From contig JAYWIR010000036.1 of assembly GCA_036172245.1 (NCBI GenBank), forward strand, positions 186,001 through 250,000: 64,000 nucleotides of DNA, read 5' to 3'. The stretch comes from Raillietiella orientalis. Lineage: Eukaryota. Below are positions 1,961 to 46,624 of the stretch, piece by piece (the stretch's first letter is position 1; the number at the start of each line of letters is the position of its first letter). The notes beneath the pieces were generated by a model that made no database searches, was not told where the DNA came from, and saw nothing but the letters and a program-made list of their open reading frames with translations. Both the position numbers and the translations under genes were made by a program.

Positions 1961-2060
1961 CGGAGCGGCCAGGAGTTCACATTTTCAGCTTCAATTAATC
2001 GATTTGCACGGAGGCTTGTTCGCGGGGCGCCCAATTGCCAGCTGGGTTTCATAACAAGAC

Positions 2061-2106
2061 CTACTTCTACTACTACTACTACTACTACAACAACAACAAC
2101 AACAAA
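2061..2106. repeat. Compound microsatellite (CTA)n(CAA)n
   Basis: ctacttctactactactactactactacaacaacaacaacaacaa read directly. Confidence 0.9.

Positions 2107-3050: not shown

Positions 3051-3053
<3 letters not shown>

Positions 3054-3083
<30 letters not shown>
3054..3083. repeat. (CT)n microsatellite
   Basis: About 15 CT units read directly. Confidence 0.9.
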
Positions 3084-3086
<3 letters not shown>

Positions 3087-6000
3087 CCCTCGAACCATCC
3101 CGGGCCTGCGGGGACCCGCGAGAGAACGCGGCGAAAATCGCAAGGGTTCCTTCGCCCGCAAACAAACGCACCCCAAGTTCTCACGCACGTACGAAAAAAA
3201 AAAAAAAAAAAGAGGGCAGGATGCCCGCGGTCCCCAAAACAGCTTCCACGTTCCCCCCCCCTCCTCCCTCCCTCCCCCCCCCCTCCCCCAACAATGCAGC
3301 AGCTTCCGTGAAATTTCACACCGCCTTCTATTTTCGGCGCCTTTTTCCGCGCCACTGGAAACCACGCCGCCGCGAAACGGGCGCGGCCGCCGGTGCGTCA
3401 CAGCCGCCGTCGCACCACCTGAACGTTCCCGGAGGGGGGTGGGGGAAGCAGTGCTGCGGTGGACCGATGGATCCGAGGGTAACCGGAAACCCGCAGGCAG
3501 AGGGGGGGGGGGGGGCTTGGCTCCCCGTGCCCTTCTCCTGGTGGTGGTCGTCTCGTTTTCCCCTCTCGAGCGCTGCGGGAGCAATCCGACGCGCGCACGC
3601 GAAAGCCGCGCGCGCTTCCGAGAAGTTTCCCGACCTCCGCGGCAGGCAGCAGCACGCGAGCGAGGGATTCCCGGGACGCCGGGGACCCGTTGGCACTCGC
3701 CGGTTCCTGCCACGCGCGTCGCCCGCCTCCCAGCCCGTTAGGGGCGCGGAACGGAATCCGAAAGGTGCTGGCGGTGGTAGTGGCTGTACCAAGCGGTGTG
3801 GTAGACACGCAAGCAGTGGTGGCTCGGAACTCGACGGTTTCGGGGCTCTCCACACTCGGCACTCGTCTCGTTTTGACGAGGAAAAGAATGTTTCGACACT
3901 CGGCGCACGCTCGGAACTCGACACCACCCCCGCTCTCGCGCTGACACACGTGAGCGCTCGAGTCCCGCGAGCAGTGCCCAACACTTCCATGCAGTGCCTC
4001 CCGAAGCGTTCCTTTTCGTGTGCTTTCCGTGCATTTTAAGCGTGAATCGCGAGTCCTAAAGTGGTTAAAAATGATACCACGGAGCCTGGAAAAGGAGCTC
4101 GTTCGGTACTCGCCGGTTTCGGCACACGTCGTGAATACCGAGGTACGTGGAAGGAGGAGGAGCAGCGAAAACCTGAAGGCGGACTGGTGACCGGGGCAGA
4201 ACGGGAAGGGCGACCCGCGCATACACGCACGAAATGCTTCCGCTGGCGAGCCACCGGCGAGGCGGTACGGGGCGGCGCATGAGCGCCACATTTTCGGATA
4301 CGCAGCTACGCGGCGAATTCGTGAGGCCACTGGGCAGCAGCTGCCAAGCGATCATTAGGCAGGGACGCCCTGTCGGCTGCGCTGTGTGCCCTGTGACACC
4401 GGCGCGCGTACGACCTCGAACACGCGAGGCCAACAACAGAGACCTCCCCGGGGTCGGCGACGACAGCGTCGCGCCGCGCGAGTCGAAAATCCCTTGCGAA
4501 GAGACTGGCAAACGGCCCGCGGCCCCCCGACTGAGGGACGTGCGGTGGTCGCGGCGTCACGGGATGGCGAAAACATCGCTCCGCCAGAGCAGAAGAATCC
4601 TCTCGACCGGCGCCTGACGAGTTTCGGATCTTGCGGGGACACTTCCGTTCGGACGACCGGAAGATCACTGCCACGCAAGCCGCTCTCGCCTGGACCAGGG
4701 AAAACGTGCAAGAGAATGGTGGGAGGCAAAGCAAAGCGACCGTGGGCGACGATCTTCCAGCGGTACGGAAGACCGCGCAGAAAAGGAGACGGAGGGGCGG
4801 TGCCAACCAGTCGTGGGGATGCTTCGCGACCGACGGGCCACGCGCACGCGGGTTCCCCTTCCGTCGAATCGCGCGCTCGACTACAGGCGAGCGCCACCGG
4901 GAAATGCACTTGCGAAGGGAAGTGGTAGCGGCTTGGCTTCGGCGAGGGAAGAAGCGCTCCCCGGGAGTGGCGGTGCAGGTTGCTCCCCCTTCCCCTGCCC
5001 CCTTCCTGCACGAAGCAACGCTGCCAGAAGAACACATGAGCACAGCGCACGTCCGAAATGCGGAGGGCCCGGGACGAGGCCGCGAACACGGGCTCTTCCG
5101 CTCGTTCGGCCGAAGTAAGGGGTGCAGGGAAGCAAGGATGATGGGCGCCGTCGAACCCTAGGAAGCGGCGGCAGCTTCGCGGGCAGAGGAGTCGAAACGC
5201 ACCGGTGCCCCAATCCCGGCTGATGATGAAAGCAGCGTCTGAACGTGCAGACTCCTTGCGGCGGCGCCCTGTTGTTCCCTCTCGACGCCTGGCCGCGCGG
5301 CTCCTCCGAACGGGAGACAGACGTCTCCGGAGAGGGCGTCGTCACCCGAGAAGATTTCGGGCCATTTGCAAAGGAACAAAGCTGCTCCGATGCGAAACAC
5401 ACAATGCCAATTAGGGGCGCAGGATAAACAACGCAAACAAATTCCAGATGCTCCCGAAGGCGTGCCCTCCTTCAAGGAACACCGGGAACGCCGCTCCACA
5501 GCGAAGTATCGAGGAGGGGAGCCGCGCGCTGCAGCTGCGCGGCACATGCGGCGGCCGGGAGAGGTGCTGCTGCTGCTCTCCCAAAAAGGTCCGCGCGCGA
5601 GAAGAGGGTGGTGGACAGGCGCGAGTCCCACGGTCCGTCCGTCCGTCAGCGCTCTCGCCTGCAGCATGCATGCACTGCCGCGTGGAGGGAAGGAGCACAG
5701 AGGGAACGTGCATTTTCAGGTTCCCCCAGAAAGAGAGAGGACGCCGCGATTCGAAGCAGCAGCGTCCTTTTCCGCCGGAAACCAAAAGCGCGAGCGGACG
5801 AAAACCTTCGGCACAGAACCACTTGTCGTCCCGTTCTGGGAAATTGCGCGGCACGGCTTTCCGAAATCCACGTGGTAGACCACACACTTCGGAACGCCGG
5901 AGGCACGACGTCCGGACGTGCTCGTTCCCTCGTGTGCTCCTTCCAGGGCGGAAGGGGAAGGGGAAGGGGAGGGGGAGCCGCAGAGATTCCTGCGTTCCTC

Positions 6001-7846
6001 CTCGTCCGGTCCTGCGGTGTTTGCTGCAGCGATAGAGGCGGACGCCCGCGGGCGAGCGATAGGAGGGTTCTCCCTGCCTTTCTTCCCTCCCCGGAACCAG
6101 GAGCGTACGGAAGGAAACACCTCCGCGTGATCTTTTTTCTTTTAGCGTTCACTTTCGGAGGTGTGAATGACCTTTGCGATTCCCCGACCTTCCAAGTTGC
6201 CGACGCGCACCGCGGGAAGACCAATCAAAAGCGGCTCAGCAAAGGGAAGAGGGAAACACCCTTTGCCACCTCGGCAGCTACGGCACTCCTTTCCCTGGGC
6301 GGTGCGCAGGGAGCCCCAGCGAAGGGCGCTGCAGCGCGAGGTGCGGAGGCGCTTCGCCGTAACGACGGCAACGGACCACGCGCGCGCTCGACTGAGGAGG
6401 GCACGGTGGTCGCCGCCAGCCTGGGGGCATCACAGTCACGTTGCTGGTAGGAGAGGACGCGGCAAGCGCTCGGATGATAATTGGAGGGCAATTAAGGGCG
6501 CGCGTCCCGTTCGCTCCGGCGACGGCAAAACTGAATGCCCCGGCAGAGCGCTTCGATTCCCCAAGGAAACGAACCCGGGGGGGAAGCCCGAAGAAGCTAC
6601 GAGAAAATCGGGGGAACGGAAAGGGGGAGAAACTCGGGCTCACGGTCCAGCCTCCTCCTCCCACTTGCGCCTGCTCAACTAGCTAGCTCCAAGGGGATTT
6701 GCGCGGGGAAAAAGGATGCTTACGATGATTTCTTTTTCTTTTCCTCCTTGTCTTGTCGCACCCCTGCGGCACGAAGAGAGGGAGGCGATGCACGGGACTC
6801 AGCGACTAGGACGGTAGACATCTGCTGCAGCAGCCGGCCGCCACTGAACGGAAACGCGGAACGTCCGTCGAGGAGAATCAAGCGAAAGAGGGTGGGGGTC
6901 AACACGCGCCATGGGAACACCTAGGGAGGAGAATGCCGCGCAGAATGCCCCGGGCGCGAGGGCATCGACACGACTCGTGCCGCCTCCGACCTCGCTGGGG
7001 CAGCGCGCGCGTCGCACGGTGGGACCGGTGGCGAACCAACAACACCGTCCTGCAGAGAGAAGCACGTCCAAGGGGGCGCCGACCAGCACGGCTACGAGTG
7101 AGAAGCAGGGAAGGCCAGGAAGGAACGCGGTGCGTCCGACCTGCCCCCACGAGTTAAGGGCCAAGACGTCCGAGCGGAAGTGGCACAGAAATCCGGAGGA
7201 AACACCGCACAAACACAAATGGCTGAGGGGAGGCGTTGAAGAGTTACTTCCGCGGTCCGTGGAGCCCCCCGTCTCCTCCTTCGCCGCCTTGGCTCCGGGG
7301 ATCTTTCGGGCCGGTCTCGCGCGTGATCCGGAGGAACAGACGAGAGACGGGGCGCGCGCGCGTCCGATAATCCGCGCCTCCTGAGGGAGGCAGGAGGTTC
7401 CTCGAGTGCTGCACCCCCGAGGCACCTTTACTCACTTTGTCCGCATCCCCTCCCCGCTCCGAAAGAAGCTGAAGAAAAGGAGCCATCACCTTCCACCCCG
7501 GGGAAAAAAAGACGAAGATGAAAAAAAGAAAGAGGACCATACTGACCAGCGCGTCCGCGGAACGGCAGGACGAAGGACAGCAGACAGATGAGCAGCTCTC
7601 GCAAATCCATTGACCGCAACCTGGAAAAAAAAAAAAAACAGATGCAATGCGTCAGGATGAAAAGAAATCGATGAACCGGCGTGCATCCCATCTTCCCCTG
7701 GGAAGACGCTAATATTCTCGGCAGTAGAAAAATAGCCCCTCCCCCTTCTTCTCCTCCCCCTTTCCTCCTCGTGCAGAGGCGAAAGGAAGGAAAAATGAAT
7801 TCGATCGTGAGGAATTTCATTTTGCACTTCGTGCGCTCTCGCGGAG

Positions 7847-7900
7847 GAGGAGGGAGACTGATCTTCGGTTCCTGAGGAGGGAGACTGATCTTCGGTTCCT
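7847..7900. repeat. Perfect 27-bp tandem duplication
   Basis: gaggagggagactgatcttcggttcct occurs at 7847-7873 and again at 7874-7900. Confidence 0.9.
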
Positions 7901-10900
7901 GGGAAGGGCGCCCGCTCCCAGAAACCTCCAGCGGACGACGGTACACGCCCCGGTGCAAGGAACGAGCAGAGAGAGAAGTACGCGCGCGGAAGTAGCTGAC
8001 GACGACCGACGCCCGCAAGGCGTGCCCCTCCCCCTCGCCAGCAGCAGCAGCACGCCCGCGCGGTCTCCGCATGGAAAGTCGCAAAAGACGGTCACTGTTT
8101 ACTGCCGAAAGTTTTTTTTTTTTTCTTCTTCTTTTTTTTTTTTTTTTGTGTGGTCTGACACAAAGTGATTTAGCTGTCGGCCATTAAGCGCGGGATATAA
8201 GAGGCGTGGGAAGCTGGGGCAATAATTCTTCCGCCGGTGTCAAGCATTTGTGGAAATGGCCGACTTTATTAGCGGATCTAATCGCCGATGCCGAGATGGG
8301 ATGGAACGATACGCAGGGAACCAAGCGAGCCTCTGGCGAAATCCTGCCTGCTAGTTAACGAACGGCACAACAGCGACGAGGATGGGGGCCGACGGCATGA
8401 CGACGGCAGCAGCACCCACTCCCGTCGCGTCTCCAGGACGCAACGTGCCGCCGCTGCCTTCACTAATGATGGCCGGGCGGCACGTACGCGCGCGACCTTT
8501 TTTTCCCTGCGGCAGCTGCTGCAGCAGCAGCAGCAGCAGCAATAGGGAACCGGGAAAGAAAAGGAGAAGCAGCAGGAAACAAAAGCACAATTGACCCGGA
8601 TCGCAGCAGAAGCAGCAGCAGCAGCAGCAGGCTTCGGTGCGCCCAGGAGAGGAGGGCGCGCGACACAGGCGCGAACGGTTGTCACTCAATTCGCAACTCG
8701 AGGGCGACGCGCGCACAGACCGTCAGGAAACCAACCGCGCAGGACACGCACACACACGTGCGAGGCGAAGCAGACAAAGGCCGAGGAGACGCGCGCGCGA
8801 GCGTGCGAGGCACCCCGCCCGCTGCTGCTGCGCGTTGCACGTCGGCACGCCACGGCGTCCCGAGAAACCGAAATTCCTGGCGTTGACGAGGTACCTCGAC
8901 GGTGCAGCTGGAGGGAACTTCACGAGAAGCACACGCACGCACACACACGGGGGGGGGGGGAGAACTCGAATCCGAGAAGTCTCGGGCGCATCTCTCTCGA
9001 TCCGAAGAGCCGTCCTCTCCGAGGATGGCACGTTGCCCGCGACGCCGCCACGGGCTGCGCGAACCAGCGTGACACCGATCTTTTCGATTCCCCTGAGTAC
9101 CGATGGAGGGACGAGGCGAACGCGATCCCCGAGGGGCTGCCACAAGGGAAGGTGGCACCTCCCTCCATTCACCTTTGCTCTCTGCGAGCGGCGCTCCGGG
9201 CGGCTGGTGGGTGTTCTCGCTTCCACCCTTTTCCGCTTTGCACGGCGACGCACGCGCAGGCGCGAGTGAAAGAAAGAGAGAAAAAAGGAAAAAAAAGGAA
9301 AAGAAAGTTGGTGCACAGACGCAAGGATGCATAAAACAATCCCCCACTCTAGGCAATTCTCTCGCTCCGGGTTCGAGGGCAGCCCATTCACACCCTACAG
9401 AAGGAGGACTACCGGGTGCGAATGGCCTTGGGGCTGATGAGAAATTCGTGAGGGCTCGCGTCGCGGCATCGCGTGAACTTTTTTTTTTTTTGGCTGGTCA
9501 TCGAAACGAAATTCTGAAGCATCCGTGGAGACGTGGCTGTGCACAATGCCCGACCGACAGGAGGGCGCAGCTGCCCTTCCCAAACGGGCAACCTCGGGGG
9601 AGGGAGGGAGGAGAGCCGGCAACGAGTGGGACCCACTTCTTTCAACGTCTTTTACCTGTTTACGCTCGGGATGGGCGCGAATTGGACGGCGGGAAGACGG
9701 AAAGCAGGGTCCGATGGACAGATAAAGCCTCCGAAGGTTTCGTGAGATGTCTAGCTGCACAGCTTCCCGAGATGCGACCACTAATGATGCGCTCCCGTTT
9801 CCAGCGTGTCGCAGCTGTAACGGCGAAATTTCGTGGGTCTTTTGGGGGGGGGGGGAGAAGGGGGGGGGGGGAAGCTTCAAAACATGGGCTGGAAGAACAC
9901 GCCACTGCCAGTTAGCACCAACGGCAAACAAATTTTAACTTTTTTTTTTTTTTTTTTTTTTTTTACTAATGACTATCTCGGGATGAAAAGCGGCACCAAC
10001 AGCACCAGATACAGAGCACGACGAAATTGCGATGACAGCTTCCAAAACAGATGACCGGGCTCGCGGAGCATAAACAAGTAACGTGGTTCGGCGATGCGGT
10101 TTCACAGTAAGGAATTTCGGTGATAATTACAAAAGACACCACGCTGTAAAAAAAAAAAAAAAAAAAGAACTCTTAGCGCATGCTGACCAATAAATCATTC
10201 CCGACATTCGCAATACGCCGAACGCATCAAAACGAATGGCATCGCAGCGCCACATCGCGCGCGCACGTACCACTTCCACTTCCAACGCAACACCTCGCAA
10301 CACCAAAACACCAAAACACAAGGAGGGAAGAAGAAGAAGGATCTTCCTCCACCGCCACCTTAGGCTACGACGGGCCCACGGTAATAAACCGCTCCTCCGT
10401 CAGTCGTGCCAACATCACAAAATGAATGCTCCGAATACTCTCCGCCGTGCTCCGGATTTTATTTGCTCCAAAACACCGAAGCAAAATATCGCATTACAAT
10501 TGAAAGCACAGGCCACACTACAACGGGGAGGGGGAAAAGGAGGAGAAAAAAAACCACCAATTAAGTTTCCACTGCGCTTTGGAGCAACTTTTTTTTTCTT
10601 TCTTTCTTTCTCTCCCCCCCCCCCCCCCCCATGAATAGCAATGGCTCTCTGTCAAGAACACATAACAAGTGGAGTTTATTCGAAAACCAGTTTGCCAGGC
10701 AAAACAGTCGCTCGGATCAGCTGTGTTTCTGCAGAAGAGGGAAAAAATGCACCGCGTCTCGAGTGGGCTGCATTTCACAAAAAGTTACAGCCTGTAAAAA
10801 CGAAATCAATTTTCCTCCCCCCTGCCTGCAAGGGCAGCAGAACCCAAGTAAGCGTGGATCCGGGCGTGCAACGGTTAGCCCTCCACTTCCCCACTCTACA

Positions 10901-13900
10901 CGGGACGAATTGGTCAGAAACGAATTTCTGGAATGTGTGGGACACGTGCACTGGCAGCTCGGATAACGAGCCCCTCGTCCGAGCAGGAAAAACAAAAGGA
11001 AGGAAGGAAAGACCGCGTCATCCGCGGTCTCCAGCCATCGAGAAACCTCCCGGTCCACGGAACGTGCGGTCCTTCGCCGAAGGGTTCTCAGGTCACATCC
11101 ACTCTCACCTTTTACTTTTCGATCCGAATCCAAGCCCGCAGCCTCCTCAGGTCTGCACCATGTTTTCCGGAACAAGCTCGACTCAGTTGGCGCTCGCAAG
11201 GGCCCGATCCAGCTGCTGTATCATCCCGCGTCCACAGGTCCACTTTTCTGTCCACAAACAAAACTTCCCACGAAGCCAAAAGGACACACACTCGCTCGCA
11301 CGCAGAGGCCACGCAGGCTTTTGTCACCAACGTTGCAGCAGCGAACGCGGAGCGCGGCGGCACCACTCCAGCTGCGAACCGCTCTCGCTCTGCCAAACAA
11401 AGCGGTGTGTGCGCGGGGTGACATCTTGCGTGGGGAAGGCCAAACTGCTCCGATGAATGGGGGGAGAGCTCGGCTCAATGAAACGCGCCAGCCGGGAGGA
11501 AAGAGAGAGGGGGAGGGGGAAGGGAGAAAGAGAAACGTGGAGTCGGCGGAAGTCTCCTGGGACGGCGCGTGGCGTCCACCTTGTTCCGGAGCTGGACCGT
11601 CCAAGTGGACGTCGGGCGTGAAGCGTTCATCTGCAACAGGCTCGACGGCCAGATGCTCGATGACTCCCGTACATGTGAAACCGAACGACAATCTTTTTCC
11701 GGTTCGTGACTGCTGTTTCGAACGTCTCGGCAAAATTCAGCACTCCCCACGAAAGTACGTAGCACCTAAAACGGTATGGTTCGAGCATGCGGGTGTTTTC
11801 AGGGAAAGAAAGTCGCAAATCATGTTCAGACCTCAGACTCGGCATCGGCCACCAAGCACTTCGGAGGTTTCTTTAACACCTTGTTGAAATTTCATTTACC
11901 CATTCGACATCCCCGGAAGGGAGTCTGCTTGCCGTTCGTGTGGTTTATACCGTCCTTTCGGATTGAGCACACGCAGTTGCCTTCACTTTATCGTTTTGGT
12001 TTGAGTCTTGGCATGTAAAGTTTCCTAACCAGAAGTACATGATCTCACGATCCGTACATCCTTTCCTTAATGGAAAGATTTTCCTCTCACAGCCTCTAAA
12101 TTGAGTGGCCATTCACTGTGGCATTCAGTGGCAAACTAGAGTGGGAGTGTCAGGGTTGAAAGGATTAGAAACAAGTAATATTGTAATGTGGAGTTTTCTG
12201 GATGTTTTGAAAGCCAGATTGATGTTGGTTGAAATTATGTATGATGTACTTTTCTGTACTGAAAGCATATGAGAATGTGGAAGCATTTGAGTACAAATAA
12301 GCAGGCAGTGTTTGGCTTCTGGGTGAAAGATGGCAACCTAAGCATTTTAAGCCCAATTCTTAAAATTTTGTTATTGCAACAAAAATAGGCTACCCTTCTA
12401 TATTGCTCTTAGCAGTTTCCATCATTTCTAGCAGCAAGGTTAACAAATACGTGTAAAATTGATCAAATTCTGGCTGGCAACTAGAATTTGATCAAACGAT
12501 CATGTCATTTGTAAAAGGCCTTCATTTTAAAAATGCTTCAAAAAAATTGAAACAGTTCATGATGCTATTAAAAAATGAATGTGGTGTGCAGTATTAGCTT
12601 ACTCCTTTGGTGAAAACCTTCTCAAGCAAAATAGTTTCCCATCACTTACATGTGAAGTTTAGTTAAAAGAACAAAAAATATAACATATTGCATACTGACA
12701 CATCCTTAAGGATTTTGCATGATTCGTTTTCTTATAGAAAGGAGTTTAAAGTAAATTTCTCAGTTGACAAATTTATCAATTCCTTGTACAGAATTCTTTT
12801 ACCAAATTACTTATATTAAAAGATTTTATAATTTGAATCCTTCAGTGGAAATTGTAGTTGTTAGTAACTGCAGTTTTTCTTTGATGGTTAAATTGAGGAG
12901 TATATCATGATGCAACCTTGTGGTGATTAAATCATGTTTTGAACTTAAGTGCACTGGCCTAAGCTAAAGTGATTATATAAATGCATTTCAGTGATTCACT
13001 TCCTCACAGTTATCTGCAATTTGTTTTCTAAAAACTAGTAGCAATGGAAGTGTTTGGAAAAAAATGAAAAAACAAGGTAAACATTATATTCAAAAGTATT
13101 CCTCTGGACCAATCAAGTGATTCCATAGATCATGTATTCATGTAAGTAGGCCCTCTGTAGAACTGAATTCAATTGTAAGCAGGTATTTTAACAAACGTAG
13201 TGAGAAACCATTTGGTGATTCATTAAGATACAAGTAACAACTGAAATCGCATATTTGGTTCCAAATGCATGCAGCCCATATTTTTGAAAGGACTTTTCTT
13301 TGACCCATTTTTCTAGAGAATTAAATCGTGCAAAATATTTTCCAGCATAGAACTTCTTGCATGGTGGCATGGTTTTTTAATTTAAGGAACACATAAATAA
13401 TGTAAATCTAAGAAAACTAAGCCAGAAGCTGCTCTTAATATATTATATTTTCTTGCATCATTATATAATAAAAATTTGCATTTAATGGTTTTCCAAGAAA
13501 ATCTTAAACTTTCATCCCATATTTAATTTTTTTTAATATGTGTTGTAATGGGTTTTAATGGACTTTTATATTTTAGCATTCCCCTAAGCTAAGTAACCTA
13601 TATAAAGTTGTAAGAATGAAAAGCTTGAGTAACCAATCTGTAGAGGAAAAAAAGAAAAAAAACTGTATATAAACTCATTCTTACAGTTAAGATTGAAAAT
13701 GAAAACAAAAGGGTTTTGAAATCAGGTTTTCTCATTCACTGCTGAACTTCTGCTTTAAACCTCATATATTACTTACTAATGTGATTGAAGTACTAAAGAA
13801 CTACTGCATGAAAGACATGTATCTGTCTTTATGACAACTGTTTCAAATAAAATCTTGGATGAGAGTTTAAGACTTTGTCACAACTATTGCATGGTTATTG

Positions 13901-15986
13901 ACAAAAACTATTGTGCAACACGTGTGGACCTTTGGAGAAATTTTCCAAGGTTCTGTAAAATAATGATGTGAAAGTATGATCCTTGGAAAATATTTGTTTT
14001 GTAATAAATATCATGAGGGAGAACTTTTCCAAACACATTTGAGGAGTAAAATTCATGTCGAGAATTTCATGTGATGTATCAGATTATTGTAGGTTTTTTT
14101 TTTTTTATAAACTATTGAAGGCCTTAGCCCTGATTGTAGTTACTTGTTTCCACAGTAAAATAGTAAGAAAATGAATTTTTCCGGACTGTAATCAAAAAGA
14201 TATCACTTCAAAGCACTCTTGGAAACATTTCAAACTTTTGTATTTTGAATTAGGTAGATTAATGCATTATGTAGTGAAATGATGCAAGATGTTCCCCCCC
14301 GTGAGCTGGCAGGTGTTTAAGAGAAAACTCAAAGCACATGAATGGAAGTACATTAAAGAGTACATAAAACCGTTTAAAAAGACTGTCCTGAGGGAAACAA
14401 ATATCGATGTTGTCTAGGTTGCCGAGGATTCTGAATCCAAAACAAGCTAAGGAAACGGACATGGTTGAATTTGTGCAGAACATAAGCTACAGTTTTTGAA
14501 ATATGTACAATCTTTCGCATCAGGTTCGGACTCCAGAATGAAAACCCTGTAAGGAAGAATTGTGCATTTGTAATGCTTAGCAGACGACAAACAAGATTGC
14601 GATTACAATCGAGCGATTTTTTCTTCTTCTTCCTCCACCGACTACCCCGTCTTGCAATTTCACCCGGAAAGAAATTGCGGCAAAGTATTTGGAGAAACTA
14701 AAAAGAATTCTTATGCATTAGAAATACAGCAACTTTACGTGTCTTGGATTTGACAACCCTGCTATCCATGCTGCTCGTGAAAGACTGCGTTTTTTTTTTT
14801 TTTTTTTTTTTTTTCTCAAAGAGTGACATGCAGCATTCTTTGAACCCTAGTATGAACCGTGACGTTCCGTAGAAAGATGGTCAGAGGAAAGTTGGATACC
14901 CCCTGGGTCCGCAGTTCCAATGTGAGAAATTTGGTAGATCAAGCCACGATATTAGTTTCTCCGGATACCTTCCTGCCTGACATTCACGGAAGCTTGTTGG
15001 CATTTTCTTCTGCATTTTGTCCATGCATGAGCAGCAGCCCACGTGCAGGAAATGAAAGTGGAGTTTCGCGGTGCCTGCAAGACGACACGAAAGGCTTTCG
15101 AAATTCCAATCGTTTTCTCACGACTTTTGTAAAAGCCCAAGCACTTTGTTCAAAACTTTTCGAGGCTTTCCAGTCGAAAGGATGCGCTTCAAAACACGAA
15201 AGTCATCGAAACAGCAGGGCTGCAACGGAAGCTTCTGATTAAAAAAGCGGGTGACAGGGTTGTGGCTTTTGTGCTGCAAGAATAATCCGAAGGGCAGGAA
15301 CACCACGAGAGATAGATGATGAGGACCAGCGAGGCGTGTCCAATAGAGAGGGGAAGGATTGCACCCCCAGATTGCCCGCGCTTCGAGGAAGTGCTGCCCC
15401 GAAAGTGAACTGCTGTGAACTAGAGTTTGAAAATCCCCCCCCCCCCCCGAGTTGTTATTTCCACACTTTTTGTGCATGAAACCACCTTAATGCTCCCATG
15501 AATGAATGCGTAGGGGTTTTCGTATTCCTGGTTGCAGCTGGTTGACTCGGGAACGTATGGCAGAGTGAACCGTATGGGCAGATTCTTTTCCATTTCGCGC
15601 CATCCGGAGAAGGGGAAAACTATGCACGCAGAGCCAACACAACTGCCGTGGCCTTTGCAACTGTCGCGTCCACACAACGGACAAGCGGAAGTCTCCCTCC
15701 AAGGAACCCAACACAATGACACCCTCCTATCACGCAAACGTATGCCTTTATAGCTGGAGGCTTTGACGTGCTAGTTCGATTCCTGATGCTCTGGCATCGA
15801 AAGGTTGCATTTAAAAAATGAAAAAGGAGTCTCATCTTACAAGAGCATGATAAAGGAGCGAAACAGACCCTTTGCTTCCGTGAAGGGTGCATTTTTACTG
15901 CTGAAAGTACATTTACCACTGCAAATATTATTGAAAAAGCAGTTAATGATCTTGGGCAGAATACAAGACCATAATTTATTTCTGTA

Positions 15987-16052: not shown

Positions 16053-17221
16053 ATGTTGCGTAATTTGGAAAAAGTGGAAATGGGACTGTTGTCCCCATCA
16101 CATGTCCAGAAAGTTTTCTATTCACAACACTGTCAAAACTTGAAGCTCAATAACAGATTTGACTTTGAAATGGTGAATACATCAGCCATCAACCATCTGG
16201 ATATGGAACATAGCCATTGGCGTTAGTAAGTTCAAATCAGGGGCCCCTAAAAATTATGGCACACATAGTCTGCTTACTGGAAATGAGGATGGTAGCTTGA
16301 TCATTTACGATTTAGCCAACATGACTGGATCACTGATGCATACAGCTCGTGCTATTTGTCATCTCAAAAGGTAAGGTGGTACCATCAAAGTCATTAACAG
16401 AGTGCAGCAGACAAGCTCATAAAAAGGCTGTCAAGTGTGTCCAATGGTATCCTCAAGATCCGGGGATGTTTATATCCAGTGGGGCAGACTGCTGCTTAAA
16501 AGTGTGGGATACAAGTACACTACAGCCTATTGAAGTGTTTCCCACACAAGGTTGTTGTACTCAACATCACCTGTCAACTAGACATGCCTTGATTGCAATA
16601 GCAAGTGGCTCATCCAATGTTTCACTTGCAGACCTAAGAACAGGAGCGCACATTCAAGAATTACGCGGCCATTCAAGGCCTGTTCTTTGCTGTCAGTGGT
16701 CACCCAGGGATGACTTCTTGGTAGCAAGTGGAGGACTGGACAAGCAGCTTTTGCTTTGGGATGTACGGGCCAGCTTTTCATGTCTTGCGAAATTACAGTT
16801 TGAAGACAGAAATGCTATCCAGCAATCTTCTGATGGAATTCACAATGGTTGCATCACTGGACTGAAATTTCTTTCAGATGGGTTGAGAATCCTATCTGTA
16901 AGGCTGAACAGGTGCATCCAGATTTTCTGCATGCTAACCCAATGTAGTTACCAAGGAAGTAAAAAACCCATTCGTGGTGCAGATTATCAATGTACACAGG
17001 TGGCTTTAGCTGAAGATGGCATCCATCCATTGTTATTTGTCCCCTCAGCATGCACAATAGATGGTTTCGAGATGGACAGTGGTCTGCAATTCTGCAGCCT
17101 CGAGGCCCACTTTCAGCGTGTTCTCTGCTGCGCTTTTGATGAGTCCAGGCAGCAATTGTATAGTGGAGGGCAAGACTGCAATTTACTTGCTTGGGCCTGC
17201 GAGCCTATGGCGACTATATGA
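16053..17221 (+). CDS. ERCC8: DNA excision repair protein ERCC-8 / Cockayne syndrome A (CSA) WD40 protein, about 361 aa, 3 exons
   Basis: Exons are 16053-16225, 16269-16370 and 16411-17221 (an alternative in-frame acceptor gives 16408), with GT-AG introns of 43 and 40 nt and 1086 nt in frame. The N-terminus MLRNLEKVEMGLLSPSHVQK...LKLNNRFDFE...AINHLDME...YLLTGNEDGSLIIYDL parallels CSA (MLGFLSARQTGLEDP...LELNKDRDVE...GINTLDIE...YMLSGGSDGVIVLYDL). It continues with HKKAVKCVQWYPQDPGMFISSGADCCLKVWDT, LRGHSRPVLCCQWSPRDDFLVASGGLDKQLLLWDVR and QQLYSGGQDCNLLAW. Confidence 0.93.
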
Positions 17222-17267: not shown

Positions 17268-20200
17268 TCAAATCTGAGTGCCTTTGGGGTGAGAAAACGG
17301 TATGATTTGGGATACATGATGTGTCCTAGACATGGAGCCCCTCACATAAGGAGCCAGCTTGTGAGCTGATATTGAATGACTGTCTCCGGATGTGAGTAAC
17401 TGGACATGTCTCTCCCAGGAAGCTTGGCTTTGCTCAATCTCTGCATAAATGGGGTCATCCCCTCTGATTTCACTATAGGTATGAACACCAGGAAATAACT
17501 GGCAATGTTGCTGGTGACTATAGGTGGGCTCTTGATGACTGCAACAAGCATCCACATGGCATAATTTACTTGGGACAAGAAGAGGGCAATGAGGGTGCAT
17601 AGGGTACATTTCAAGTCTTCGATCTATCCTAGGATGCCCCAACAGATCTACAGGCATGATACGTGGTGATTCTCCTTGCTCTGAACTTCCGTTTCCAGAA
17701 TCTCTTCCCAAAGAACATGATGAACACTCCTGCTTTTACAGCATGATGGCAGTATGCAAGCTGAAAAACTTACCTCTCCTTCTGCTACACGCTCATTTTT
17801 TCTTCTGACACTACTAGCACGTAAAGAAGGATAAAGATGCAACACAGCATGATTCACATTTGTGACAGGCTGCTGCTCCCTCTGCATCAAAATTGTACCT
17901 GACGGTGTCATCAGGGCTGGAGCTTTAGGTGCTGTACAATAACATGGAACAGAGCTACGCTCTGAAAAACACAGCAGCAACAAACAAGACTTATCTACGG
18001 ACTGCAAGCAGCGTTCCCTGATCTATCGTTTAAAAAAAGGGGGGCAGTTAGAATAATACTTTGAAAAAAAAAGTTTGGACTCACTTTGCTGTTCTTTTGA
18101 CAAGAGTACAGGATAACAGCAGGCATCAGAGATAAGTTAAGAATGACAAATAAATATGCCAGAGGCAGCCGGCGGACCAGAACAAATGCGAGTCCCGATG
18201 CCCATGTGGATAGTGTCAGTAGCACAAATATAGCAGCCATGCAGAATTTGCCTTGTGGCATTTCATCAATACTCATCCGATGGCAGGCAGTACAGGCACC
18301 AAGCAGGAAGAACAAAATTAGCATCTGATGTAAATAAATAGCCTCCGAGCATCTTCGAATGGGCTCTTACCATAACGACTATAATACTGGGACCCACAAA
18401 ACTAAAGATGAAGAATCTATCCAACTTCAGCCAACAGTGGGTTTTTCCACCAAATGCAAATGGATCCACAAGAGCCGTGATGGCTACAACAAGGGATGGA
18501 CAGCCATATGCCAAGATATACAGCCACCAAGACTGCAAGAATTCTCCGTCATCACGTACAGATGAATACAAAAGAACCACTGAAAAGACATGATGATGAC
18601 GACGAGCGCTCGCAACGCGGAGCCCTCTTTCTTTACCTTCCAGAAGCAACCAACAAATCAGGGATAGTAGCACCAATTCTAAACTACCTGCCAGCATCTG
18701 ACAGGCGAGCCCATTATCCACTTGGGACAGTCCAATTGCGAATAAAAGTTCCGATAAGAGGAGACAAATGCACAAATTTTGATGAACCACGTGCTGGACC
18801 TTGGGGAGGCGAAACACGGAGAGAAGAGTGACGATGCATATAAGGCACAGTACTGATACGGAACACGAAACATAAATTAAAAGCAGTCCGGTCGACGCGC
18901 TCTTGCTGCTGGACGGAGGAACTTCTTCCATGCGCAGAGCAAAGTTGTTCAGACGATAACAGTAGCAGATGGTATGACTGCTGTTCGAACTTACTGCCTG
19001 GCACCCATCGTGCGACCACCAACTGAAAGGGGAGAGGGATGGGGGGGGGAGAGATGCAATTGGGAGGAGGACCAGGATGCAGCAGTTACCGCGCTTCGTG
19101 ATCCCAGTAAACGCACGAGGGGCTCGATCCATTGGGAGGCTTCCTGTGCCGGAAAATCAACTGGACCGGCCTTTCCACTTTCACGTGCTTCCCGTAGCTC
19201 AGGGACGCTGACACCATCTGCGAGTTGATGACCGACGATTTGTCAAGGAAATCTCCCAGCGTGCGATACGCGAAAAACGTAAGGCGCGTCAGGCCGTTGC
19301 GGCTGTTCTCTGAAATGACGTCGGGGGGCAGGATGAGAGCCGCATCGCTCCAGAAATCATTTCTTCTGCCAGCAGGGAAGAACACCGACCCGGCTTGCAC
19401 GGAGTGCATGATCAACACAGACAACACTTCATTGAGCAGGAAGAAAAGAAAGAAAAAAAAAAACGGGGCATAAGAGGGAACACGGAACGCGCATTTCACT
19501 CACAGATGTTGGACTCTTCGAACGCCAACTGGCGCCCTAGACCAAGGACGTTGGCAAGAAGCGACGCGTTTTCCTCAAGGCCGACGAGCATGTCGCTGGC
19601 TGCCTTTTTCTGCTGCTGCGGGGAAAGGTCATTCCACGCATCCCTCTGGGTCTCCTCGAGGAGGTTGCTGCTGGCACGAACGACCATCTGCACCAGCTCG
19701 ATCACCAGCTCCGTGTCCACGTGACCGGAAAGATCCCACGTCAGCTGGGATGCGACGTGATTGAGCACGTCGATGGCGGAAAGGAGGTCACCGCCGTGGA
19801 GGTGCTTGCTGGCGGCCACCAACACAAGATCGGCAGCCACGCTCATCACAGCCTCCCCGTTTTGCAGCTGCACAGGCAGTTGTTGTTTCCCACGGAATAA
19901 CCCCCGCCACGGTTTACCCTGTTCTCCAGACTGGTGAGCCAGGCCGACTTGCACTGGCTGAGATTGGGATAAGGGGTCTTCCAGTCTCCCACGCCGCACT
20001 GCCAGTACGCGTTTCCGGTGGCTCCACTGGGGCAGGGCTGCGTAAGCGTCTCACCGAAACCAGTCCACATCCACATCAGCCCTCTTGCCACTTTGGGGGA
20101 ACACCCTTCTTCAGGTACGGTTACCGAAAGGTTCCAAACTGAACGGAAGAACCGCAACAGTAAGCACCACAGGGAACGGAAGAACCCGATGCTGTCGAGC

Positions 20201-23200
20201 TCTCACCATCGGCGGCGCTGCTCTCCTCCTGGCGTACACCTTCCGAGTTTGACAGGAAATGAGGGTGCAACGCGGATGTGCGTTGCCTCGGCACTTCGGT
20301 AGCCAATACTCTCTTGATGTCGTCGGGCAAACGTATCGTAATGGCTGACGTGAAGGTCGTGGGCTTTGGCGTTGTCAGGACGGAAGTGCTTGGAATGAAC
20401 TCGGAAACTGCCGTTTCCTGAGCTGAGTGTTTCGACGGCTCCGTAGTGTTGAACGCTACAGAATCCGCAGATGCGTAGTGCAAAGAAGACGGCATCACTG
20501 CAGCTACTGTTCTTTCATGAGTAGACGCTATCAAGAATGAAAAGCCAGCAATGAAAAATCGGGAGGAAACAGGAAAAGGAGGAGCACCCAGTGGAAGAAT
20601 TTCATGCAAAGAAGTAGAAAAGAGGATCAAAGGACCAATACCTGAAATGCAGAGGAAATGAGTCTCTAAGTATTTTCGAGTGCCTGGGCATGGATCTTCG
20701 AAAAAAGAGGAACTGGCGTCAACTTCACAGTGGCCTCGAAAGCTACATCTGGTCATACAACATGAATGAAATCAAGAGAACCACGACAGAATATTATTTC
20801 TGCATATATACATATACGTGTGTGTGCGTGTGTGTGTGTGTGTCTTTCCAAACAGCAATTCTAAGCAGCGGTCCGGCGGCGTCCATGGTTTGGTTTCGAG
20901 GAACGATTTCATCTTTCTTTTCTCTTTTTTGTTGCTGTTGTTTTTAAAGACTACATTTTATGAGATTCTGAACGTTTCGTTTCCGTCTGACCAAAGGGAA
21001 CCGTGCAGAAGGGGGAAAACACTTCAGGTGCGTGTCCGTGGAAGAAGACGGGAAACGAAGCTGTACCTCCTATGCGTCCTTCGCCGACGCAGAAATGCAG
21101 AAGAGCACGGCGTACGGTGCCTACGATTCACGGAATGCAACCAGGAAGGACTTGAGGTGCTGATATTCCCGTGAGGAACGCGTTTTTGCCCGGAAAAGGG
21201 CACATCAGGATGGGGAGAAAAAAAAAAAAAAAAATGTTAGCGAATGGAAAGTTAGTGGAAACAAAGAAACCCGAATGCAGAGCTCCCGCACAATGGAGAC
21301 CATACCAACCTATGATGCACGCATAATGGACTTCTATGTACTTGAACGTTCCCGGGCAAGGATCGGCAAACAGGTTACTGCTGACGTGCATGATACAACT
21401 ACCTTTATATCCACATCTGATCACAGAAGACAACATAAAAAAAGGAATGCACACAACACACATCCTTCACCACACAGACTGCAACAACATGCTTGCACAC
21501 AAACAACGGCCACCTACGAGATCCTTGTTCACCGAGGGCAGCACCGGAGGTCCCCCAAAGAAGTCGCGCACAAAAAAAAAAGAAAAACCTCGGAGTCGTC
21601 GTGGGAAAACTTACGATCTTCCAGAAAGCGTGCAGGGAAGCAGAAACTGAAGTACAACTTACACGAGAAGCTTTCAGGAAAAGGAAGGAAGGAAGGAAGG
21701 AGATCGAACTGTCCAAGTGACCACGGACGCTGACCCACAAGCTCCAATGCTTCCCGAACTATGCGCCAAATCATGCACACTACACGTCTAGGTGCTCGGG
21801 CAAGGACGTCCTCGTATTAAGGGGCCGTTGCCATCCTCGATGTTCGCACCGACGGGGGACGAAGGCCCGAAGCTTTCAAAAAAAAAAAACCCGCGCGCCC
21901 AGGATGCTGATTTCTTTCAGCTACGCGTGCGAGCAGATCTTCTTCGCACGCTGCCGCCGCCGCCAATGGCGTCAGGGAGCGCGTGCGAACTCGTTGGGGA
22001 AGATCACAGCAGGCACCTCGCAACGTCACGCGCAGATCACCCTTCATCCCGCCGTTGTCATGTCTTTCGCCCGTTTTCTGTCTCATCACTCCGCGGAGGA
22101 CCACGGTTGCTTCGTCTTCTGCCCTTCCGCCCCGCCTTCCTGCCAGACCCGCAAGGTCCGCCCTGCCCTGCGAGCGGCGATGACGCAACAATGGAAAGGC
22201 GAGCTAAATCTGGAAAAGCATCGTTTCTTCCGCGCCCGTACTTTGGCATACACCACCATTAAATAACGAGGAGGAATGACCTTTCGTTCGAACCTGCAAG
22301 CACTCATTAAGAAGCCAAAAAAAAAAAAAAAAGAAAGAAAGAAAAGGCAAAACGCAAGAAAACGGAACCAGGAGTGCCAGTGGAAAGCAACAGCAACGGG
22401 TACGCATTTCCGTGCTTGGGGGGTGCTCACCTGCAAGGGACTCGCTGGGGTCGCATACGAATTGAAGTAACACCTTCAGAGAGTGTTCCCTCAAATGGGC
22501 GCGCGGAGCAGAAGGGTGGGAGGGCGAAGGAGAAGGGGGGTGGACAGAGAAGCAGCTCGAGCACCAACCGCGGCATCTTCCTGCTCCAGGAAAACGGGAG
22601 AAAAAAAAGAAAAAAAAAAAACCTGACGCACTGACCTCTTGCTCAACACGGACAGGGTATCTGGATACATGCAATTCACACTCCAGTCGGTGTTGCCGTG
22701 GTTATTGCAGATCGTGATCGAGAATCGACCGTAATTGGCCCGAATCAACTGTATCACATAGTCTTCTTCGCACTCCAGTCTAAGACGGCTGCCCTCGCAG
22801 GCATATGCGGTCCGGTATTTTGATGCATCTAAGGAGAAAGAAAGAAAAGAAAGAAGACAAAAAAAACACATGCGTTTTCAAACAAATCGAATTTAAGAAA
22901 CCAATGGAGACAAATCTGCTATTGAATTTTACGCATGCACGCGGCCCCGTACAACATAAAAGATGAGTAATCGGTTCTTCTGGTACCACATTTTCGTCTG
23001 ACCGAACGCGGCACAAGAGCAGCAGGATGAACTAAAAAAACAACAGCAGCAGCAGCAGCAAAAACAAAAAAAAAAAAAGAGAGAGAGAGAAAGGCTCCAC
23101 AAAATCCCACGGTCGTGCCCATGGTCCCAGCCATGCGCATCATCCTCAAACAGCACCGAGTAACGACAAGACGAAACGGTCATCCGGTCAATGCATCATG

Positions 23201-35504: not shown

Positions 35505-36368
35505 GCCCCTAGTTGGAACTCATTTCTGTCAAGACAAGCGACCGGACGGCCGCCGCTGAGCATCTTTTCCCTCGAGGTTCTTCGCTGCCATCAGAGCTCG
35601 CAACGCAGAAAGAACGATGCGCTAAAAGGGAAGGAGAACCGAAAGAGGGGGGATGGCACTAAAAAAGAGCGTGGAACCGATTTCCCTTCCACTTCGGACG
35701 CAATTTCGTGCACTTCGACAGAACCGGGGAAGTCGGAATCATCAGGGTGATTAACAAGAGGTGCGAACACAAACGCTGGATTCACCTTGGAGATTCACAC
35801 TTTGAGAGAAATCCGGAATTTTTATTGCCGGCGATAAATCAAAAGAGGAACGTGAAAAATCGTCCGGAACCTGCCCGCGCCGTGCTCACAGGCGAAAATC
35901 GCGCGCGTTGCCATGGCACCCGGCAAGCCGGCAGCGTCGTCCAAGCAACGCGCCTGCCGCGTGGCATTGTTGCGGGGAGGCGCGGGCGGCGGCGGACGAG
36001 GAGGCTGCAACCGCCGAAGACCGCGCGGGCGGCAGGCACGGAACGGTATTGTTGCACTTCGGAGCCGTTGCCTTGGCGAGGATCTCCTCCGGAGCGTGTT
36101 TTGAATCACGAAGCGGATCTACAGAAAGGACTTCTTGCGATCGAGTGCCCCGCGCGGGCGTTCCCGAGGGAGGGGCGGGGGGGGGGGGGCAAAGCCCTTG
36201 CGAAAGCTCCCTCCGCGTTGAAGTCGCGGAAAAGACAGTTTCGCAAAGAGCGGCTGGCAAGACGACGGTACTTCTCCGCACTCCCTGCCTGGGCGGGCGG
36301 CGGGAGTGATGGAGACAGAAAGCTCGCATCCATTGCTACTCGCCCAACTGCGGAACGCTCCGCATTTC

Positions 36369-36401
<33 letters not shown>

Positions 36402-39400
36402 CTTTCTTTCGAAAAAGCAAAACCGCAGCAGCGGCAGCGATGCCCTCCCGGAGAACTTTCTCGCGGGGTCTCTTTCCACAGACACACGAAGAGCATTTGC
36501 TTACAGGCAAAATGGCTTTTTCCTTGTTGCTTTCCGGTGCGCAGCTGTGTGCGTTCCTTCTTCCCACTTGCTTCCACCACCACCACCACCACCACCACAC
36601 TAGGCAAACACTACAACCCCTGAGGCACCTCCGCTTCGAAGGACAGGAAAAAAACGACCGGAAAACCTGGTCCTCAGAGCATATCGCAGGTCACTCCGCG
36701 GGCACGGGGCAGCAGCGCACGCACAACTGGGCAATAGTGGCTCGGGAAAAACGGGAGGAAGGGGGCACCTCCCGGGGGACAAAAAATTCTTCCTTTTTTT
36801 CTCCTGCTCCTCCTTGCCGGGAGCGGCGGAGGCATTCACGCTGGCCAGGGAGCAGCAGCAGCTTCGCGAGGCGACGACGTCGACCACCACCAGGAACAGG
36901 AACAACAACAACACCGCCGCCGCCACCACCACCACCACCACCGACGGGCTCTCGCTTGGTCGCTCGCGGCCACTCTCGCCGGCTCGGTGACACTCGCCGC
37001 ACGCCCGCCCGCCTTCGTGCGGGTCCAACGCTCAACTCGGAACTGGTCCGTCCGACAGCCTGCCTCGTGCGTTTCCTCGCCTGCGTCGGGAGGGGGGGGG
37101 AGAGAGAAAGGGAAAGAGAGCGGGAGGAGGAGGAGGGGGGAGGCAAAGAGCGCGAATGGAACGCGAACCTGTGCCGCGATGTCTCTGCCGCTGAGGCTTT
37201 CGCACTCGCCCGCCCGAGGGCGCGCGAGAGGGCACACGCTCTCGAGCCTCGCGCACAGGGGCGGGAAGGCGCGATGCTGCGGGGAGAAAAAGACGCGGAG
37301 GAGGAGGAGGAGGGGGGAGCATGGTGGACGCGAGGGAGCCACGGGATACGCGCCGTCTCCGCAAGCGGGCACGCGGGAACGAGGCACCACCGAAAGGGGT
37401 ACGCCTCTCGCGCGGGGTCCGAAATCCCCGCGCTGCCGTTTCCAATCACGGCGGCCGTGGCGGGAAAATCTTCCAGAGCGAACGCGCGCCGCCGAAAAAC
37501 CTTCTTTCCACTTCGGTTTTTTTCCCTTTTCCGTTTTTAATTTATTTTATTTATTATTTTGTTGTTTTTTTTTGTTTTTTGTTCAGGGGAGGGGGGGGGA
37601 TTCGCCTAGGCGTCTCGTTCGGCCGCTTCCAAAGCAGCGGGACGCGCCAAAGGAACGAGGCGAAGGGTCGATCTCCTCCTCCTCCTCCTTCTCCTCCTCC
37701 TCCTCCTCCTCTTCTTCCTGCCCGGCGCCGCCGCTCCTCTCGTGCGTGCCGCCCACGTTCCGGGTGGCGGCGGAATCCCCACGGAGAGGAACCCTGGCAG
37801 GAGACAAGGCAACCGGCTGGGGAGGCGATGCCTCGTCGCCGTGGGAACTCCGCGTTGCCGCCTCCGGGAGATGAATCGGTGGTCCACGCCCCGCGGGAGG
37901 CGCTTCCTGGAAGGGGAACGGGGGCGAAGGAACCGCCAGACCCTCCCTCCAGGTCCCTCCGCTGCGGACGCACGAGCCGTGGCGTCTTCGCTCCCTCCGG
38001 TCCCGTGTCCTCCACCCTCGGGCAGGGGACCCGCGACGCGGTCGTCCGCGCCTATAGAGTCGCCGGAGTCGGGAAGGGCCGCATCGGGCGCCGGTGGGCG
38101 GTGGTCGTTGCCCTGGGAGACAGCAGGGGGGAAGAGCGCCTGCCAATGCCCCAGGAGGAAAGGCAGCGTGAGCTCCGGCCAGCCGGCCCCTCCGTTCGGA
38201 AGGCACCACGCACGAGCGATGGCGCACTCCCCGAGCGGCCGGCGAGAGTCGCTACCACTGGATGGGGTGGAAGCGACAGGCCCGCCTGACCATCTCCACG
38301 GGGTCGTGCGGCGGCACGGCGCTGCCGCATGGACCTCCAGAAGGGTGAGGTACTGCCCGTCGTCCCTCCTTTACCCATCCGGATTTTTTGTGTATGTGCT
38401 TCTATTTTTAGAACAAGCGCGCCCCGGCGTGACCGGTCAAAGACGCTGCTCGCCTCCTTCGTCCACCTCCGTCCCGTCTTCTCTTCCCCGCCTTCTCCCC
38501 ACCTCCCACTGTGCCTCGCCCCCCTTCCTTGGCTGCGTCCTGACCCCCTCGTCCACCTTGTGCTTGGCGAGGGGCGGGGGCAGCGTGCTGGACTACCGCC
38601 CCCTCCTGGGAGGTGAATGCTGGGTAGACCCCGCGGACCCCTGGGCTCTGCCCCGGGAGCAGGGTGCAACAGCAGCAGCAGCAGCAGGGCGGTCGCCAGC
38701 CGGTGACCCCCTCCCTTTTCCCTTGCGGGGAGGAGCTCATCCCGCAGATGGAGCGGAAGAACGCGGAAACGGACGGGCTGGGGTCTCCTCGGGTCAAGCC
38801 GCAGGCACCCCTGCGACCTCGGGTGACGCTCCCGCGGTTCCCTCGCTGCGGCGGCGGCCTCCGCGAGGTCGAGTGGGGAGACCTTCCGCTTGGGACGGGA
38901 GATCGGCTGGCCCCCCTCCCACCAGGTCACTTGCACTCTTCCTGACTCTGATACTGCCCCGATCCCTCCCCAAGGGTACGCGCTGGCGTTGCAGCTCGCC
39001 AGTCTGAGAAATAGTGCTCAGGGATGGGGAGGGGAGCTCCTGGCACACCCGTCTATGACTGGGTACCAATGTCGCCGCTGCCGCCGCTCCTCGCCGTTGG
39101 GGGTCCCCCTACGGCGTGCCACGCGTGGGCGGGAAGATCGGCGACCGGCCACGCGACCCCACCTCCTCCGCGGCGGAGCGCGGGGCATTGGGAGGGGGGG
39201 GGGAAGGCGGCAGCACCCTCTTGCGTCCCCTGGGGACGGGGCACCCTGCAGAGGGCAGCGACCGGCGCGCTGCGTCTCGAGAGCGGCGGCGGGAGGAGGG
39301 AGATTTACGGCCCTGCCGGCAGGGACCCGCTCGACCGGGAGTCCCGCTGTTCTCAAGCGGGGGGCCGCTCGCGAGGAGCGCGTCGGAGCAACTGCGTAAA

Positions 39401-43000: not shown

Positions 43001-43210
43001 GACAATTTCGTTTTTCTTTGTGTGCGCTCTTGATGGGCGAGTGTTAACAATGGTTTTCTTTCGGAGAGCGTGACGGGAGTCTCAACAATGGTTTTCTTTC
43101 GAAGTGCGTGAAGGGCGAATTTCAACAATAATTTCCCTTCGGCGTGCTCCTGCGTGGCAACAATGGATGTGAGCGACTGGACTTGTCGTTTGCAACAATG
43201 GTTTCTTGTG
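43001..43210. repeat. Degenerate 35-40 bp tandem array with a recurrent AACAAT(G) core
   Basis: AACAAT starts at 43046, 43084, 43124, 43159 and 43194. The first two units share aacaatggttttctttcg exactly. Confidence 0.75.

Positions 43211-46585: not shown

Positions 46586-46624
<39 letters not shown>

Follow-up and report, generated by a model that had tools for sequence, protein, structure and literature searches.

Putative mutually exclusive exons for half of the lectin domain in a latrophilin/Cirl-type receptor gene of Raillietiella orientalis

The mutually exclusive exons IIIb and IIIc of FGFR2 encode alternative C-terminal halves of a ligand-binding domain; their lengths are not multiples of three, and transcripts that include both exons decay. 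In the variable clusters of Dscam1, tandem exons replace part of an extracellular binding domain, one exon being used per mRNA, in a system that employs docking and selector sequences. Here we analyse a 64,000-nucleotide stretch of the Raillietiella orientalis genome (GenBank assembly GCA_036172245.1, contig JAYWIR010000036.1, positions 186,001 to 250,000 of the forward strand; hereafter the window, to which all coordinates refer), the minus strand of which carries a latrophilin/Cirl-like adhesion G-protein-coupled receptor (GPCR) gene with two tandem exons, A and B, that would each supply the second half of its lectin domain.

Few adhesion GPCRs are common to vertebrates and invertebrates; latrophilins belong to these few, and it is through their lectin domain that they contact partners on other cells. 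Alternative splicing in the N-terminal region of the family has been described for vertebrates, where a splice site between the lectin and olfactomedin domains alters partner binding (Boucard et al. 2014, as cited in PMC6422961 and 10.1101/2020.01.13.901090). For Drosophila Cirl, the accessible text of a preprint describes eight transcripts, with seven-transmembrane (7TM) and one-transmembrane (1TM) forms and a truncated 'RBLneo' N terminus (10.1101/2023.01.11.521585).

Two alternative exons for one half of a lectin domain

Exons A (21310..21416, minus strand) and B (20642..20748, minus strand) are adjacent homologous exons of equal length and phase with canonical splice sites. Re-reading the minus strand, we recovered them as the initial annotation of the window had drawn them: each is 107 nucleotides (nt) long, preceded by AG and followed by GT, with matching phase, the single starting base completing a codon and the single final base opening the next. 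Pfam and tblastn comparisons identify both as the C-terminal half of the lectin domain, version A ending in KYIEVHYAC and version B in KYLETHFLC. Their translations agree with those first reported, with 18 of 35 residues identical and four Cys and the motif DPCPGT.KY retained in both. The remaining 17 of the 35 positions differ, B being two charge units more acidic, and these differences are placed in the hairpin between the first two Cys, in the next strand and in the last strand. At the level of bases, A and B are identical at 58 of 107 positions; the other 49 differ, which rules out an assembly artefact or a haplotype copy.

Only one N-terminal lectin half accompanies the two exons, as the initial annotation had stated, and a relaxed tblastn search over the 64-kb window found no second. 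When the three peptides were searched against the whole window with E values up to 50, two cassette copies and one N half appeared below E 0.1, and no third cassette copy was found below that value. The donor end of the N-half exon (GT, 22635-22634) stood as first annotated (exon 22636-22828), but a start at the AG of 22830-22829 is improbable: we favour an in-frame ATG at 22871-22869, followed by a hydrophobic leader of 15-17 residues immediately before the lectin domain. Given this ATG, the leader and a leader-to-lectin spacing equal to that of the Darwinula protein P0102, the exon (22636..22871, minus strand; Pfam and comparison) is probably the first coding exon, with the start codon, a signal peptide and the constant lectin N half, and not an internal exon from 22828. 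The pyrimidine-rich 'acceptor' region of this exon (22829-22871) may be coding.

As read from the minus strand, the intron between the N half and exon A (21417..22635) spans 1219 nt and runs from GT to AG, as does the A-B intron (20749..21309), the length of which, 561 nt, agrees with the spacing first given; the latter contains a (CA)n repeat (20818-20845) and a purine-rich tract (20907-20945). Exon B is followed by an intron (20528..20641) that is 114 nt long and stop-free in frame, an open reading frame (ORF) at 20124-20771 spanning it. This length is a multiple of three, and the intron, if retained, would lengthen the linker by 38 residues in the B form only. A Ser/Thr/Pro-rich linker exon follows (20207..20527, minus strand, read by eye), with its donor GT at 20206-20205 and a frame that suits the next exon. 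The donors read GTCAGT, GTTGGT and GTATTG, both cassette donors being non-consensus, and all acceptors are AG. Both introns carry TTCTTTG and then TTCCACT some 35-60 nt past the cassette (21254-21275 and 20582-20612, minus strand), and 9 of the 12 final intron bases upstream of A and B agree. These resemblances may have been left over from the duplication, or they may mark a splicing element common to both exons.

With an exon length of 107 nt, mRNAs that carry both exons or neither are out of frame. Scripted joins at these coordinates bore out the frame rule of the initial annotation: the N half joined to A or to B and then to the next exon stays open, the N half joined to A and B meets a TAG inside B, and the N half joined directly to the next exon reaches a TGA after four codons. 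We propose that the leader and the N-terminal half of a SUEL/rhamnose-binding lectin domain come from the constant first exon, and that either exon A or exon B would supply the second half. Of the four Cys in that second half, two must form disulfides with the constant half if the pattern known for the fold applies. The A-only and B-only mRNAs would encode the receptor, and mRNAs with both exons or neither would end early and should be lost through nonsense-mediated decay. The outcome would be two receptors whose lectin domains differ at about 17 positions, on the surface and in the core, and keep the Cys frame and DPCPGT.KY. We infer that both exons are spliced in Raillietiella orientalis, and we consider it likely that A and B are tandem-duplicated, mutually exclusive cassette exons of a latrophilin/Cirl-type adhesion GPCR.

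Both exons have been under long purifying selection. Comparison of synonymous and non-synonymous change between A and B gave a proportion of synonymous differences (pS) of 0.96, which is saturated, with 13 of 35 third codon positions identical, and a proportion of non-synonymous differences (pN) of 0.34, consistent with such selection. In a simulation of 200,000 neutral copies of exon A, each with 49 randomly placed substitutions, 23% of the copies were stop-free, 0.10% kept the four Cys and 0.011% kept DPCPGT, and none of the 200,000 kept at least 18 of 35 residues. Saturated synonymous sites together with the retained residues therefore point to an old duplication, both copies of which have long been held as coding sequence. 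A dead copy of either exon is unlikely on these figures, and both may still be in use today.

The exons belong to a compact latrophilin/Cirl-like gene. A Pfam scan of 129 minus-strand ORFs from 11-31 kb of the window gave, in this order, SUEL_Lectin, HRM (hormone receptor motif), GAIN in two pieces, GPS and 7tm_2. SUEL_Lectin was matched by the N-half ORF over profile positions 1-46 (24.5 bits), by the exon-A ORF over 46-80 (33.6 bits) and by the exon-B ORF over 45-80 (28.0 bits); of these three half-domain ORFs only exon A exceeds the whole-domain cut-off of 31.4 bits, as is expected for half domains. Further along, HRM scored 38.7 bits, GAIN 59.2 and 30.9 bits, GPS 30.8 bits and 7tm_2 68 bits, the last over profile positions 7-171 only, the later helices being visible solely as weak tblastn matches. 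In tblastn comparisons five arthropod latrophilin Cirl proteins were collinear with the gene from 22865 to about 17400. Joining the linker exon to the HRM exon keeps the frame (checked by eye), and this junction and the domains downstream imply that either cassette leads into a complete invertebrate-type latrophilin. No olfactomedin domain was found among the Pfam matches of the gene, which we assign on these matches to the latrophilin/Cirl type (ADGRL) of adhesion GPCRs in its invertebrate form.

Conservation differs along the protein. A search of longer proteins with the N half gave 302 matches, and the best 120 of them are nearly all labelled as insect or crustacean latrophilin Cirl; within these best 120, pancrustacean (insect and crustacean) Cirl proteins show 59-77% identity to the N half. 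The N-half exon region is 69% identical to Darwinula Cirl and 60% identical to Tribolium Cirl, with a similar leader length. The best relatives of the GPS/7TM ORF are 37-41% identical in an exhaustive HMMER search of 1.84 billion representatives, and identity to Tribolium Cirl in this part is 35% by BLASTP. The best matches of the 7TM part include Cirl of Lycorma (P0118), Darwinula (P0102) and Sitophilus (P0013) at 38-40% identity, most others being unnamed, and a word-based search with this part returned a snail protein and fish ADGRB2 instead of latrophilins. A word-filtered search of long proteins with the exon-B region gave no candidate, a result that carries no information on relatives. 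Compared with Tribolium, the 7TM ORF (18269-19156, minus strand) has an in-frame insert of about 17 residues that may be a small unspliced intron.

Lectin cassettes of other arthropods

Proteins of other arthropods carry two kinds of cassette at the same place. Among the best 120 of the 302 N-half matches, to which the following description refers, a cassette could be read in 116, of which 93 were assigned to a 'type 1' and 23 to a 'type 2'; the four proteins without a cassette look like mispredictions. Type 1 is nearly invariant from dragonflies to flies and in a shrimp (..NCSI.ASTSMFGDPCPGT.KYLEAHYQC). Type 2 is variable (..NC.V.VNN..FGDPCP.T.KY[IV]E[AV][HQ]Y.C) and occurs in beetles, wasps, bees, a whitefly and a lacewing, with forms from Vespa, Nasonia, Bemisia and Chrysoperla, and a copepod-like and an ostracod protein resemble it. 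All proteins of Drosophila and other dipterans in this set are of type 1 only.

Both types also occur as labelled isoforms of one species. In Tribolium castaneum (isoforms X5 and X3), Zophobas morio (X3 and X2) and Agrilus planipennis (X3 and X2), the flanks of the two isoforms are identical and about 34 residues are swapped, and global alignment revealed the same swap of about 34 residues between identical flanks in two proteins of Brassicogethes aeneus. The other differences within these beetle pairs sit far downstream, and both members of each pair are recorded on equally long contigs. Among 155 proteins with an N half and a cassette, 11 of 107 groups that share an identical 45-residue N half have more than one cassette; seven of these 11 consist of small variants between species and four of radically different pairs, which come from tenebrionids, Agrilus, two scarabs and two Vespa species. 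An alternative lectin half thus appears to be a conserved feature of arthropod Cirl and not private to one lineage, a shared origin being no more than possible. Three further proteins, P0145, P0154 and P0158, have very similar N halves (..GNTEWSVNCQS..) and a cassette that is either A-like (KYIEVHY.C) or type-1/B-like (GTRKYLEAQY), a hint that another arthropod group may also have two such cassettes.

A full-text literature search, supplements and subscription journals aside, returned no description of alternative lectin halves in Cirl. No lectin-half alternative is mentioned in the accessible text of a 2019 review of invertebrate latrophilins (PMC6422961) or of a 2026 consortium review (PMC13197933), and the accessible main text of a paper that surveyed such exon pairs across 15 insects mentions none either (PMC3303723). 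The remark in the initial annotation that such a switch had not been described for latrophilins is correct as far as the searched literature goes, but as data the cassette already exists in public insect isoform annotation. It is present there and apparently undiscussed in print.

The kinship of A and B with the two insect types is less clear. In tblastn comparisons, three type-1 proteins match B above A (52.8 against 49.7, 51.2 against 45.4 and 53.1 against 45.1 bits), a type-2 protein matches A marginally above B (46.2 against 45.8 bits) and the ostracod protein matches A clearly above B (56.6 against 45.8 bits). Ranked by percentage of identical residues, type 1 leans to B (of 52 unique cassettes, 44 are nearer B, two nearer A and six tie) and insect type 2 leans to A (of 18 unique cassettes, 12 are nearer A, two nearer B and four tie), in sequences so related to one another that these counts are not a statistical test.

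Several observations weigh against the proposal of mutually exclusive exons or against a firm tie of A and B to the insect types. A look-up of sequencing runs for 20300-22900 listed no RNA run. Exon B has a weaker polypyrimidine tract and a lower Pfam score than A. Both cassettes prefer the type-2 profile over that of type 1 (A with 55.8 against 47.4 bits, B with 54.4 against 50.4 bits), the split of A and B between the types is weak by alignment score, and A and B, with 17 of 33 residues in common, resemble each other to the same degree as either resembles the insect cassettes. The insect isoform evidence consists of predicted isoforms as labelled by their source. Labelled predicted isoforms are usually based on RNA-seq. 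From these comparisons it is possible that A and B arose by an independent duplication, separate from the insect types, and a shared ancient origin of A, B and the insect types is possible as well. We regard as rather doubtful the more specific proposal of an ancient, arthropod-wide or older, two-state switch, in which B would descend from the invariant type 1 and A from the variable type 2. If it were true, both cassettes would have been kept for several hundred million years though the 7TM part drifted to 35-40% identity. The invariant version would then recognise a partner that is itself conserved, and the variable version a glycan or a partner that evolves fast, as two recognition modes chosen by splicing, and the lack of the alternative in the Drosophila forms examined would explain the field's oversight.

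Exon use, exclusivity and ligand recognition

The weaker pyrimidine tract and lower Pfam score of exon B would also suit the idea that one exon, more likely B, is an unused relic of the duplication and that a single receptor is made. We consider this quite unlikely: synonymous sites are saturated and yet frame, splice sites, four Cys and motif are intact, a combination that neutral copies of exon A retained very rarely in the simulation, and type-1 insect cassettes are slightly nearer B than A, which is unexpected for a dead exon. Where both exons are used, their exclusivity has to be explained. Steric blocking is excluded, as the initial annotation had said, since the A-B intron is far too long. 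Incompatibility of U2 and U12 splice sites was rejected as well, no donor fitting the U12 consensus when read by eye. The initial annotation had concluded that a regulatory mechanism is implied; this is weakened, as the exon length alone puts double inclusion and double skipping out of frame. In known exon pairs with a length that is not a multiple of three, out-of-frame mRNAs decay, giving exclusive products, and in the present gene the wrong combinations carry early stops and would therefore be expected to be lost by nonsense-mediated decay. The simplest account is that the frame rule and decay of the out-of-frame mRNAs, the latter expected from their early stops, suffice for exclusivity. 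The choice between A and B in each cell would then depend on ordinary splicing regulators. Competing base pairing between intron RNAs, as in the docking and selector system of Dscam, is an unlikely source of exclusivity here. Candidate pairings can be drawn: several U-rich tracts are potential partners of the purine-rich tract in the A-B intron, 14 nt within that purine-rich tract (20931-20944) are 93% complementary to 22384-22397 in the upstream intron, and a G-rich stretch (22200-22090) can pair with a C/U-rich one (21113-20985) at about -38 kcal/mol. However, these pairings are of low complexity, the inverted repeats between the introns consisting mostly of a purine tract opposite a U tract. 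The search for docker/selector pairing that had been suggested, scored in 40-nt windows against natural segments taken from other parts of the window, gave no pairing between introns that stood out from background. The most stable 40-nt duplex that the upstream intron forms with the A-B intron has -37.8 kcal/mol, and 17 of 26 composition-matched segments reached this value or better. It is still less probable that the mRNA with both A and B is itself a product, namely a secreted lectin-only protein with the leader, a complete lectin domain (N half and A) and a frameshifted tail of 27 residues. Its reading is open up to the TAG in B, and both Drosophila Cirl and C. elegans LAT-1 are known to have receptor forms that lack the 7TM part (accessible text of PMC13197933 and of the preprint 10.1101/2023.01.11.521585). 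Against it, mRNAs with a stop long before their final exons are normally targeted for decay.

If both receptors are made, the question is what the swap does to recognition, and it is plausible that the A and B versions differ in partner or glycan binding. Gene anatomy, frame logic, long coding constraint and labelled insect isoforms are the established parts of the case. The initial annotation had gone further and called the cassette a ligand-specificity switch. That A and B bind different Toll-family receptors, teneurins or glycans is a tentative reading, with less than an even chance of being right. In its favour, some 40% of the lectin domain, its C-terminal part, is replaced with the cassette, and A and B differ at 17 of 35 positions and by two charge units. 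In insects one version is almost invariant and the other freely variable, which suggests two selective regimes. The lectin domain is also a documented binding module: according to the accessible parts of the respective papers, it binds TOL-1 in C. elegans LAT-1, where binding is lost with F69A and where D79 lies at the tip of a 24-residue loop (10.1101/2023.05.04.539414), and it binds teneurin in vertebrates, the lectin residues named in the Lphn3/Tenm2 study being S38, R44, D49 and D67 and the bridge C36-C66 (10.1101/2020.01.13.901090). The same contacts, however, argue against a switch. Aligned with chain 8suf_E, the N-half ORF has an F in the motif YGRF and a D ten residues on, which fit F69 and D79 of LAT-1 (numbering offset inferred from the F-to-D spacing) and fall, with the long loop, in the constant half. 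The named Lphn3 residues and the bridge presumably precede the cassette as well, by the Cys pattern that we take to hold for the fold. On this alignment the best-documented Toll and teneurin contacts would not be among the swapped residues, and A and B share the sugar-site motif DPCPGT.KY of the cassette unchanged. The accessible text of both papers describes interfaces larger than the named residues (10.1101/2023.05.04.539414; 10.1101/2020.01.13.901090), and cassette residues may still join the interface or tune binding. Of the original claim, the two alternative exons for the lectin C-terminal half and their frame rule stand, and the switch of ligand is weakened by the constant contacts and the shared sugar motif.

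Gene layout and comparison with described systems

Downstream of the linker, the gene continues on the minus strand with the HRM exon (19918..20138, Pfam) and with the remaining exons, for which Pfam and collinear tblastn matches give approximate limits of 17397..19879. Within these, GAIN lies at about 19879-19071 (Pfam), GPS and 7TM at about 19024-18362 and 18237-18070 (Pfam and tblastn) and the C-terminal tail at about 17735-17397 (tblastn). Near the 3' end of the receptor gene and convergent with it, a 294-residue WD40 ORF (16337-17218, plus strand; WD40 81.6 bits), apparently of one exon, matches generic WD40 clusters only. It is the only one with a Pfam match among 132 further long ORFs of the window, and no Rfam match was found in the window. 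The GC content is 0.32 at 12001-14000, about 0.50 in the receptor exons and 0.58-0.69 over long stretches free of Pfam matches (1-10000 and 36000-50000), and the long GC-rich ORFs look like chance frames.

The insect Cirl isoforms are the nearest relatives of this arrangement. They share with it the family, the position in the domain (directly after the ..VL..R/K codon, from the fifth Cys), the identical flanks and a cassette of 33-35 residues up to the last Cys. They differ in that the receptor of the window is only 35% identical to that of Tribolium in the GPS/7TM part and that A and B have no firm type assignment; the insect case is known from predicted isoforms, the present one from DNA alone. 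Drosophila Cirl, too, is heavily spliced and produces forms without the 7TM part, 1TM by intron retention, whereas the accessible text of the Drosophila preprint leaves a lectin cassette swap unmentioned (10.1101/2023.01.11.521585). The vertebrate latrophilin splice site likewise lies in the N-terminal adhesion region; it inserts 4-5 residues outside the lectin fold, in contrast to the exchange of half a fold proposed here.

A splice choice that rebuilds 40% of the lectin domain would offer a tractable genetic handle on what the domain recognises, and since the cassette is annotated in Tribolium, where RNA interference and genome editing are in use, the question can be tested in a model insect. 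Outside the family, Dscam1 resembles this locus in that tandem duplicated exons exchange part of a binding domain, and differs from it in that only two variants exist here, no intron pairing stood out from background and the frame rule can explain exclusivity. The closest analogue is FGFR2 IIIb/IIIc, in which an exon pair swaps half of a receptor binding domain with the same frame logic, although there the domain is a vertebrate Ig domain of a receptor tyrosine kinase and both the ligand switch and its tissue-specific regulators are established. The Raillietiella orientalis gene would add a case to the short list of receptors that exchange half a binding domain through mutually exclusive exons.

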